From contig OY970364.1 of the NCBI GenBank assembly GCA_963718565.1, positions 864,001-928,000 on the forward strand: DNA of 64,000 nucleotides, in the 5' to 3' direction. Below are positions 59,520-61,915 of this stretch, one piece after another. This stretch comes from an uncultured Verrucomicrobiae bacterium (GTDB lineage: Bacteria > Chlamydiota > Chlamydiia > Chlamydiales > Rhabdochlamydiaceae). The stretch's first letter is position 1. Each line of letters starts with the position of its first letter. Under the pieces are notes generated by a model that did no database searches, was not told where the DNA came from, and worked only from the letters and a program-made list of their open reading frames with translations. The position numbers and the translations under genes were made by a program.

Positions 59520-59867
59520 ATGTTTCACAAGCTTATAAAATGTATGATCGCAGTATTTTTGTTCACACAGGTAGCTTTGATTGCTGTGGAAACCAAGGCA
59601 ATAGAATGCGAAGAACAGGTGTCATCTCAAATGCAGACTTTTATAGTTGCACCTCAAGATTTACATTGCGACCAAAACAACATTTTGATGAACGTCGATG
59701 GTCATCTTTATGAGGTATATTCTTTGAGAAAAAGTGGACATCAATGGCTTGCAGAAGCTGCCGTAGGAAACACGTGCGCTTGGGGACATCCTCTCTGTGG
59801 GTATTGTGAATTATGCCACCACAGAGTTTGTCCTCTCTATCAACCAAGATGCTCCCATTCAAAATGA
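59520..59867 (+). CDS. Small exported protein with a Cys/His-rich C-terminus
   Basis: GGAGG RBS, signal peptide, CAWGHPLCGYCELCHHRVCPLYQPRC. Confidence 0.75.
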   Translation: MFHKLIKCMIAVFLFTQVALIAVETKAIECEEQVSSQMQTFIVAPQDLHCDQNNILMNVDGHLYEVYSLRKSGHQWLAEAAVGNTCAWGHPLCGYCELCHHRVCPLYQPRCSHSK

Positions 59868-61915
59868 GAATACTATTGAGGGAATTGCAAAACCTTTCGC
59901 CGCATAAAATCGCGCTTTTGGCATCTGTCGCCTTGGCGGCGGCTCTCCTACTTATCCAAGTATGCTTTCGCCGCCGCCAACCGAACCCGCTGTGCGGGTT
60001 CTGGCAACAGGTGCCAAAATCATCGATTTTCTGCTGGCGAGGAGTTTTGCAATTCCCTCTATTTTGTTGCATATTGTCATGTGCTTTTTGCAATGCAAAG
60101 CCAATTTGCATTGATAGTGCACATGAATATACTATCTTAGATCAATTTTTCAAAATGGCATTTTTATCTGAAGAGTATGGATATGTACTCGAAGGATCTA
60201 AACCCATCTCCATAAGAAGCTTTGCTTCTACTGATTGTTTTCCAATTACAAAGGATTTCAATCATGATGAAATAGAATTTAATAATACACTTCTTGTTCG
60301 AGAGGTCATTCCTATCTGGAATAAATTTTGTTCTAGAAATAAACGTTTTGTTCTTAAAGTCGTAGCCCTAAATAATCAAGTTCCGTCTTTTCTATCGACT
60401 TTAGAAGTGTCCTTCATAAACATTTCTAAACTTAAAGAAGTCATAGAGAAAAACATTGATCTGTTTCGCTATGCCTTAGGACCCGCCAGTACCGTTCAAT
60501 ATATCCTAGATACCATTGCTAATGCTGACCAGCCTCTGATAAAGATCTTGAACTTCGATCTTACTTTAATGGGCATTGTGCTTGGATTTGGATCACACAA
60601 TAGTATAGTAGGTGGACGACTTGAGACAATCCTTGCTTTATCTATTTCTAAAGACCATCCCCCTTTTACTCCTCAAAGTCACTTAATGCAAGATAAAGGA
60701 GATCACGATCATAGTCTGAATGCTCTCACGCCAGAAAGATATGGAATCTACTATTTAGAACTAGCGGGTGGGGACGACATAAATTTTAGAGTAGATCTTC
60801 CTCGATTGCAACCTCATTTGACCTTTGCAAATTTGACTGAGGAAGTGCAGACCCTTGATGGACTAGAAGAATCATTACCGCCCCTGCTTTGGGAGCGACC
60901 TAGGTTCGTTTTCGGGGCCTTCACAGGAGGTCCTCCTAATGAGCCGCTTTTTAAACATTTGCGTAAGAAGCAAAAAAAAATTCAGACGCTTCTTAAAAAA
61001 TCCGATTTTTTGGAATATGTTTTGGGAAAAATTAATGGAGAAAAGCCAGCGATTCGATTCGAGAAAAAGGCTTCTTTTGTCGATATACCGACACCTAGCA
61101 CACATAATGTAGAAATATGGAGTGAAATCCTTCGAAATGCAACAAATCGCTTTGAAGGCAAGGAAAGAAAGTTGGCATTTATCGAAGCATTTTACCACCC
61201 CAGTGATTCCTTTCGAAAGCCCCCCATGATGATGGGTGCTTCAGCAGCAGCCCTTAAAGGATTAAAAATGGCTCGTTGCAAACTTGCACAAGCAGATGCA
61301 CAATTTTCAATGTTATCACAAGATGCCTCATTGAAGGAAATTGTCTCTAAGCGACTTTATTTCAAGACAGATCTCCTTGGCAATGGCAAAGAATTAAAAG
61401 AGGAAGATCATGTACGTATCAGCTATGTGATCGAAGACCAGGAGGGGAATATCCTTTTCGCTAACCATGATAGCTGGTTGCATCTTTCACAGACAATTCC
61501 TGGTTTTGCCCATGGGGTGAAAGGAATGCAAGTCCACGAAAAGCGCACCATTTTTGTTCACCCAACTCTTGGCTATGGCGCCCTAACCACTCTACCACCC
61601 TGCTCTGCCCTTATCATCAAAGTGCATTTGTTAGATGTAGATCCACAAGTTTCCGGTAGGACGTTGCCGCCTTTGGCGCCTCTTGACTTAAGCTGGGTGC
61701 AAGAGAATTCTTTTTACAAAGATATTGAAGATTCTCTCAATCAGCAGCCATATTTTGTCGGTTGTTTCTATCGCGAAATATTAGATAAAACAGATCAGTT
61801 GACAGCGGCTCTTCCTGAGCGCCGTCAACTGATCGGAACAGCGCCAAAGGACGCTGAAAATGCAGACTTACTTAGACTTAACTTGTATAAAATATGGACG
61901 AATCCAGGGGATTAG
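59864..61915 (+). CDS. Large protein with a C-terminal FKBP-type PPIase domain and an in-frame MITE in its signal peptide
   Basis: ATGA overlap with the upstream stop; FKBP motifs GNG...VRISY, TIPGFAHGVKGM, RTIFVHP.LGYG, LPP.SALI. Confidence 0.85.
   Translation: MRILLRELQNLSPHKIALLASVALAAALLLIQVCFRRRQPNPLCGFWQQVPKSSIFCWRGVLQFPLFCCILSCAFCNAKPICIDSAHEYTILDQFFKMAFLSEEYGYVLEGSKPISIRSFASTDCFPITKDFNHDEIEFNNTLLVREVIPIWNKFCSRNKRFVLKVVALNNQVPSFLSTLEVSFINISKLKEVIEKNIDLFRYALGPASTVQYILDTIANADQPLIKILNFDLTLMGIVLGFGSHNSIVGGRLETILALSISKDHPPFTPQSHLMQDKGDHDHSLNALTPERYGIYYLELAGGDDINFRVDLPRLQPHLTFANLTEEVQTLDGLEESLPPLLWERPRFVFGAFTGGPPNEPLFKHLRKKQKKIQTLLKKSDFLEYVLGKINGEKPAIRFEKKASFVDIPTPSTHNVEIWSEILRNATNRFEGKERKLAFIEAFYHPSDSFRKPPMMMGASAAALKGLKMARCKLAQADAQFSMLSQDASLKEIVSKRLYFKTDLLGNGKELKEEDHVRISYVIEDQEGNILFANHDSWLHLSQTIPGFAHGVKGMQVHEKRTIFVHPTLGYGALTTLPPCSALIIKVHLLDVDPQVSGRTLPPLAPLDLSWVQENSFYKDIEDSLNQQPYFVGCFYREILDKTDQLTAALPERRQLIGTAPKDAENADLLRLNLYKIWTNPGD
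59878..60059. mobile_element. 182-bp MITE (GAGGGAATTGC family), TATT duplication, in frame within a CDS
   Basis: GAGGGAATTGCAAAAC and GTTTTGCAATTCCCTC; TATT at 59874-59877 and 60060-60063. Confidence 0.92.

Follow-up and report, generated by a model that had tools for sequence, protein, structure and literature searches.

We analysed a window of 64,000 nt (G000:C1:864001-928000; GenBank contig OY970364.1) from an uncultured member of the Rhabdochlamydiaceae, in which a MITE, or miniature inverted-repeat transposable element, lies in frame within the signal-peptide region of a gene encoding an FKBP-domain protein. The genome, referred to here as G000, is a single contig of 2,284,058 bp with a G+C content of 43.6%. 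The FKBP-domain gene occupies 59864..61915 on the + strand, where an open frame of 683 codons plus stop coincides with an identical public gene call of 683 aa. Its FKBP_C domain (PF00254) maps to 61391..61633 (+ strand; 35.6 bits against a cut-off of 21.1), corresponding to residues 527-607 of the 700-aa frame that is open from 59813 to 61915. An in-frame ATG is also present at 59813; the public gene call chose the ATG at 59864, and it is with this position that the N-termini of the orthologues align. The ATG at 59864 overlaps the TGA (59865-59867) of an upstream open reading frame (ORF) at 59520-59867, the two codons forming ATGA. The sources named for homologues of the FKBP protein are 'Candidatus Rhabdochlamydia sp.' and 'Chlamydiales bacterium', which points to an environmental chlamydia. 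The family to which it belongs (~600 residues, with a large N-terminal part that matches no Pfam family) is represented by at least two members in many genomes of the genus.

The element occupies 59878..60059 (182 bp, + strand) and is bounded at both ends by a perfect 16-nt terminal inverted repeat (TIR), GAGGGAATTGCAAAAC, at 59878..59893 (+ strand) and 60044..60059 (- strand). Matches to this repeat with at most 2 mismatches number 8 in the window against 0.15 expected, a count that was reached in 0 of 100 shuffles, and the inverted arms of the 182-bp element reach 27 nt at 85%. A TATT target-site duplication, recognized from the letters and by comparison of the flanks, is present on the left (59874..59877) and on the right (60060..60063). 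Six-frame translation of the 182 bp gives short peptides only; short and without a transposase gene, the element is a MITE, that is, a non-autonomous TIR transposon. Together with the 4-bp duplication it adds 186 bp, or 62 codons, after codon 4 of the FKBP-domain gene. The gene remains one ORF because the insert amounts to whole codons and because the frame in which it is read contains no stop. In this frame, which places the first element base at codon position 3 and which we refer to as the hydrophobic frame, codons 16-35 (59909..59968, + strand) encode IALLASVALAAALLLIQVCF, a new transmembrane (TM)-like hydrophobic segment whose Kyte-Doolittle 19-residue mean (KD19) peaks at 2.59. The segment is followed by RRR at codons 36-38 (59969..59977, + strand), the opening of a loop with a net charge of +5 by charge count. 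The copy at the FKBP locus departs from a 23-copy consensus at 4 positions. Contigs of four soil or freshwater DNA runs held fragments broken at 59878 and at 60059-60063, none of them bridging the element, and are uninformative on an empty allele.

Removal of the element in silico joins MRIL to FCCILSCAFCNAKPICIDS. The resulting leader reads MRIL, FCCILSCAFCNA and then KPICIDS; positions -3 and -1 of the putative cleavage site are C and A, and by reading and Kyte-Doolittle analysis the hydropathy (KD11) reaches up to 2.61. In the gene as it stands, alignment, excision and hydropathy place this native hydrophobic core and putative cleavage region, FCCILSCAFCNA, at codons 67-78 (60062..60097, + strand), again directly ahead of KPICIDS. 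Homologues read ...SCHA↓KSICID and ...FCNA↓NPICID at the same junction, and share the pattern ...C(H/N)A↓K/N/Q..IC.D together with the same hydrophobic core. A first-pass annotation of the window, made from the letters, had described a MITE inserted in frame into a signal peptide, a clean leader on excision with its ATG overlapping the upstream stop, and an added TM-like helix with a basic flank; each of these descriptions agrees with what we find. It had also anticipated an empty site in orthologues, and the alignment bears this out: among the 15 members of the family the 62-residue insert is unique to this FKBP protein, the other 14 carrying none (0/14). Decay of the gene, which the same annotation named as an outcome that would count against it, is not seen. 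The other 14 sequences agree with one another at 167 alignment columns; the FKBP protein departs at 5 of these, and the same test applied to each other member gave 1-8 departures. Its nearest homologue is 74% identical, and an insert-free paralogue, 63% identical, is located at G000 1276904-1278655. Judged from the alignment, the host gene looks to be under constraint and without sign of decay.

The element belongs to a family that is abundant in this genome. A blastn search with the element returned 332 matches, ~27 of them full-length at 94-97% identity, and pairing of TIRs (at most 2 mismatches per TIR, at most 400 bp apart) identified 83 copies. Twenty-three of these measure 182 bp, seven 257 bp, seven 258 bp and four 259 bp, the rest being shorter or of odd length, and a perfect 4-bp duplication with the consensus T-W-W-A flanks 55 of the 83. 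Of 18 other genomes of the genus, 12 contain diverged relatives at 70-84% identity, and 22 genomes beyond the genus gave one short, weak match. The peptide of the element, searched at longer lengths against 5.8 billion proteins, returned 9 matches, 7 of which came from this genome. No autonomous partner was found among TIR pairs 400-3500 bp apart, none of which holds a transposase of its own, transposase families beyond DDE_Tnp_1 not having been searched. One candidate, at G000 1624273-1626012, proved to be an ISAs1-like insertion sequence (IS) of ~1301 bp (DDE_Tnp_1 plus DDE_Tnp_1_assoc), one of ~13 near-identical copies, nested in a larger element whose ends are the same 16-nt TIRs and which is flanked by a TGAA duplication; it was hence rejected. 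Three IS types with DDE_Tnp_1 were likewise rejected as partners, their ends differing from the TIRs of the MITE.

Random genome positions fall in ORFs of at least 150 aa in 83% of cases, yet most copies of the element are intergenic or lie at gene ends. For a census of coding copies we listed those whose excised site falls in an ORF of at least 100 aa, together with those that are read through by a long frame. Sixteen TIR-paired copies lie in coding regions, with Pfam domains in 14 of their 16 hosts, and the frame is open in every one of them. The length plus 4 is divisible by three in 16/16 coding copies as opposed to 32/67 other copies (Fisher 4e-5). The 257-bp variant is coding in 7/7 copies, while the 258- and 259-bp variants are coding in 0/11 (3e-5). 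In the 182-bp class all three open frames survive in each of the 8 coding copies, but one or more of them has been lost in 8 of the 15 non-coding copies. The consensus element has three open frames out of six, rather than two, and at least three open frames were obtained in only 141 of 20,000 shuffles of the element. Since the third frame shuts only when T precedes GAGGG, as it does at the FKBP site, the expectation of openness by chance is 1/3 to 1/2. The one-third originally adopted as the chance level is therefore its lower bound, and the excess of in-frame intragenic copies over chance that had been predicted holds at the upper one: openness in 16/16 copies at a chance of 1/2 has a probability of 1.5e-5.

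No frame-breaking copy inside an intact gene was found in the census of 83 paired copies, and selection against damage is therefore effective. Six seemingly frame-closing copies, in ORFs at G000 25637, 451267, 2114366, 287433, 609769 and 651457, were rejected as such; by our reading of the N-termini they lie a few codons upstream of likely true starts, in genes of provisional identity. We left out of the counts three doubtful ORFs without family support (G000 2417, 2078079 and 1788442), the N-terminus of a YitT membrane protein with an ambiguous start (G000 91352), and nine copies located 0-19 codons from the end of an ORF. Taken together, these counts demonstrate strong selection for read-through and frame continuity.

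The reading of the insert differs between classes of host. The hydrophobic reading (...PHKIALLA.VALAAALLLIQVCFRRR...) occurs in 8 hosts, in all of which it lies at a secretory N-terminus, ahead of the native hydrophobic core and no more than ~12 codons from a plausible start. Seven of these hosts are SBP_bac_3, FKBP, SGL-family, Peptidase_S13, Gly_transf_sug, Legionella_OMP and Glyco_transf_92 proteins, and the eighth has no Pfam family. Two more signal-peptide inserts, in a MORN-repeat lipoprotein (G000 1797198) and a protein without a Pfam family (G000 487130), have hydrophilic readings, as do the inserts in all six cytoplasmic hosts (Chorismate_bind, SET, ABC_tran, TsaB, MutY-like and RluA). 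The hydrophobic frame is accordingly found in 8/10 secretory versus 0/6 cytoplasmic hosts (Fisher 0.0035), the two classes being our own, assigned from reading, Kyte-Doolittle values and family names. A tentative generalization, which we hold to be somewhat less probable than its opposite, is that the MITE family is translatable in three frames and that selection sorts these frames by compartment, the TM-like one surviving solely in cleaved leaders of exported proteins and the hydrophilic ones in cytoplasmic enzymes. Were this true, signal peptides would be a safe harbour for mobile DNA and would contain a standing pool of ready hydrophobic helices, able to make soluble exported proteins membrane-anchored or to route them via the signal recognition particle (SRP).

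Inserts in other species of the genus bear on the same question. The orthologue of the SGL gene in another species carries an insert at the same site that is still open, and both gaps in the comparison are whole codons. The flanks of this pair are 90% identical as protein and 63% identical at four-fold sites; for the insert the values are 66% as protein and 74% as DNA. In the MORN lipoprotein genes (G000 1797198-1797379 and L031, G004:C237), the element occupies the same leader site in opposite orientations in two species, and the reading of the insert in the other species is mostly hydrophobic. The opposite orientations could have arisen if the element inverted by way of its long inverted arms, or if a hotspot was hit twice independently. 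At secretory N-termini, further other-species inserts are read in the hydrophobic-type frame in 3/3 cases (the MORN orthologue and two exported proteins), one of them diverged and less hydrophobic, while those elsewhere are hydrophilic in 2/2 cases (a MutS-like tail and a membrane-protein loop). Three further copies are intergenic. Diverged inserts of another species keep a hydrophobic stretch, which reads IALLSLLVPAAAFLLSQLCL followed by RRRR in one and IALLPPFVPAAALLLSQVCL without the basic cluster in another.

We propose, with a probability of about 60%, that the insert is translated and persists as a tolerated passenger in a cleaved leader rather than as an adaptation, with signal-peptide N-termini serving as a niche for the hydrophobic reading. 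That a non-autonomous TIR transposon (182 bp, with a 4-bp T-W-W-A duplication) landed after codon 4 of the gene for a secreted FKBP-type protein is shown by the TIRs, the duplication, the 186-bp length and the empty site in homologues; the rest of the proposal is drawn from the sequence comparisons above. Ribosomes would start at the native ATG that overlaps the upstream stop and would read through the element. The leader of the predicted precursor would be 62 residues longer than the native one and would comprise a basic tail of net charge +2, a 20-residue helix, the basic loop of net charge +5, and the native core with its CNA↓K site. Because all of the insert precedes the cleavage site, signal peptidase would cut off the whole of it and leave the mature protein unaltered. 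Under the positive-inside rule basic loops stay in the cytoplasm; the most likely arrangement of the helix and the native core would be a hairpin whose basic loop is cytoplasmic, the native core still leading the mature part out. Cleavage of the insert would explain why the TM-like insert persists nowhere but in front of signal-peptide cores.

Several points weigh against the idea of a translated and cleaved passenger. The net charges on the two sides of the new helix differ little (+2 before and +5 after), which makes the topology uncertain, and the signal peptides were called by reading and from Kyte-Doolittle values rather than with SignalP or TMHMM. There is no close relative by which to date the insertion, and an intact gene could simply mean that the insertion is recent. 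At -122 kcal/mol over 261 nt (z -10.6), the RNA of the element is predicted to fold into a very stable hairpin, which starts ~14 nt past the ATG. At 60055-60073 the base of this hairpin, CCCTC, is followed by TATTTTGTTG, an arrangement that is intrinsic-terminator-like on the sense strand. If formed as predicted, the hairpin together with TATTTTGTTG could hinder initiation, end transcription or lower expression. A simple scan for terminators and promoters returned no match at the element, but it admits loops of 3-8 nt and is blind to a 180-nt hairpin. Finally, a GTG and a TTG within the element are in frame with the host only in the hydrophobic frame. A model in which translation restarts at these codons would consequently predict the same frame at N-terminal sites, so that the frame bias alone is not decisive.

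In that model, translation would restart in the element at the GTG of codon 50 (60011..60013, + strand) or at the TTG at 60047 (codon 62), and the insert would be 5' leader RNA ahead of a short, near-native signal peptide, the functional protein then lacking the 62 codons. Both candidate starts were read from the sequence, and use of the GTG is conjectural. The TTG is preceded by GAGGAG and TT (60039..60049, + strand) in the right arm, within the predicted hairpin stem. We regard a restart as unlikely, despite the fact that the GTG and TTG are in frame solely in the reading that is found at 8/10 signal-peptide sites. Although GAGGAG lies ahead of the TTG, the spacing is only 2 nt, while the usual distance of such a motif from the start codon is 5-9 nt, and the hairpin (-122 kcal/mol) would bury both codons in its 3' arm. 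The element is often found in 5' untranslated regions, immediately upstream of starts (6 cases by our reading), and one partial copy provides the called start of the secreted protein P0078, as a restart would allow. However, a restart needs neither an open upstream part nor a length divisible by three, and yet, where the long variant is read in this frame at a signal-peptide site, it measures 257 bp in 3/3 copies and never 258 or 259 bp. The SGL insert, moreover, has stayed open, with whole-codon gaps only, over 26% DNA divergence, and the signal-peptide inserts at G000 487130 and 1797198 are read in frames that lack the GTG and TTG codons.

The first-pass annotation had suggested instead that the repeat may change the targeting of the FKBP protein. 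The helix and RRR would then act as a signal anchor or an SRP switch, and a soluble protein would become membrane-tethered or rerouted, possibly to advantage. A KD19 of 2.59 denotes a strongly hydrophobic helix, and the retention of a hydrophobic stretch in the diverged inserts IALLSLLVPAAAFLLSQLCL and IALLPPFVPAAALLLSQVCL, as well as the rarity of three open frames among shuffles (141/20,000), are in keeping with such a function. Against this stand the presence of the same insert in 8 unrelated secretory proteins, always with the native hydrophobic core intact behind it, and the intact, putative native cleavage motif at the FKBP locus; a benefit common to such dissimilar proteins is improbable. 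The SGL insert also evolves much faster than its flanks (66% versus 90% protein identity). The suggested change of targeting is conceivable, but on present sequence comparisons we rate it as distinctly doubtful. Passive tolerance in a cleaved leader fits the pattern at least as well because the secretory hosts are 8 and unrelated, because core and cleavage motif are intact, and because the SGL insert has been kept in two species. That the insertion inactivated the gene, which would now be decaying or silent, we consider highly improbable: expression could be blocked by the hairpin and the T-rich tail behind it, and the insert-free, 63%-identical paralogue could cover the function, but the 617 codons downstream of the insert are intact, departures at invariant columns (5/167) are no more than in homologues (a recent insertion would look alike), and frame-breaking copies are seen in no intact gene, as effective selection against damage would have it.

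The parallel with Rickettsia palindromic elements (RPEs) that had been drawn for this insertion is apt, given that 16/16 coding copies are open and in frame. In the sections of the cited papers that deal with these repeats, R. bellii is credited with 526 RPEs, 53 of them in genes (PMC1458961), and nearly half of the 44 RPEs of R. conorii are placed in ORFs (PMC10969869). On these accounts and that of Delihas 2008 (PMC2229807), the RPEs and the chlamydial MITE are both short palindromic repeats found in frame in many unrelated genes of an obligate intracellular bacterium, and both encode a peptide that the host function seemingly tolerates. The chlamydial MITE differs in belonging to a different phylum, in its clear 16-bp TIRs and 4-bp duplication, in its three usable frames of different character, and in its concentration at signal peptides. 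The likeness is one of behaviour, and we do not claim membership of the RPE sequence families. In-frame behaviour of this kind being already known from Rickettsia, the chlamydial case is by analogy an RPE-like phenomenon with a signal-peptide niche.

Other MITE-like repeats offer partial parallels. The Yersinia palindromic sequence, YPAL/RU-2, is described in the pertinent section of Delihas 2008 (PMC2229807) as a 168-bp MITE with a 56-residue translation rich in hydrophobic residues. Its in-frame fusions are reported there to yield predicted signal-peptide motifs (YPO1552; PMC2229807), and we count both traits as points of likeness to the chlamydial MITE. In that account YPAL/RU-2 is credited with contributing to a new exported protein (PMC2229807), whereas the chlamydial MITE precedes an existing, conserved signal peptide of known secretory proteins. 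The same section describes 107-bp and 155-bp forms of the Neisseria Correia elements, the open-frame form lying inside genes and the stop-bearing form between genes (PMC2229807). This sorting by length, as summarized in that source, parallels that of the 257-bp versus the 258- and 259-bp variants, with the difference that the chlamydial variants are sorted by whether their length is divisible by three, in addition to stops. To our knowledge, the Correia and chlamydial element families are unrelated. ERIC, BOX and QMITE1 of Coxiella are presented in the relevant passages of PMC10969869 as ORF-carrying MITEs whose intragenic copies can fuse in frame. Those passages (PMC10969869) report no signal-peptide bias, unlike what we observe for the chlamydial MITE. 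A literature search on MITEs inside chlamydial genes found no paper, and the main text of Halter et al. 2022 (PMC9723776), which treats insertion sequences, uses neither 'MITE' nor 'palindromic' (0 occurrences).

In-frame mobile repeats, the classic peculiarity of Rickettsia genomes, recur here in an intracellular lineage unrelated to it, which suggests that compact genomes under strong selection generally give rise to them. With one element, three readings and many hosts, the family constitutes a natural experiment that shows which parts of proteins are able to absorb 60-90 extra residues, and the signal-peptide bias predicts how much extra sequence Sec leaders tolerate. The inserts also matter to annotators: in genes that bear them, predicted start codons and signal peptides will be wrong.

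As regards the neighbours of the FKBP-domain gene, the upstream ORF (59520..59867, + strand) is an open frame of 115 codons whose product is Cys-rich, has a hydrophobic N-terminus and matches no Pfam family. In 6 of 7 related loci a homologue of this ORF adjoins the FKBP gene on its upstream side, and the two genes are probably a co-translated pair. At its 3' end the FKBP gene is overlapped by 48 bp by a convergent ORF of 228 codons (61868-62554, - strand) that matches Peptidase_C39 (29.4 bits against a cut-off of 22).

Further traces of the element are present in the window. A second copy, consisting of a 97-bp right-hand part that is 96-100% identical, lies at 59306-59402 (+ strand) with its TIR at 59387-59402. 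This truncated copy sits 118 bp upstream of the 115-codon ORF, and two copies thus bracket that small gene. Two overlapping TIR-like matches on opposite strands, with 2 mismatches each, form a short palindrome at 58454-58473, inside the 5' end of an ORF on the - strand (57446-58504); the palindrome may be what is left of a copy, or may have arisen by chance. The long variant is represented by a 258-bp copy, flanked by a TAAA duplication and located at 63378-63635 (G000 927378-927635), outside any long ORF.

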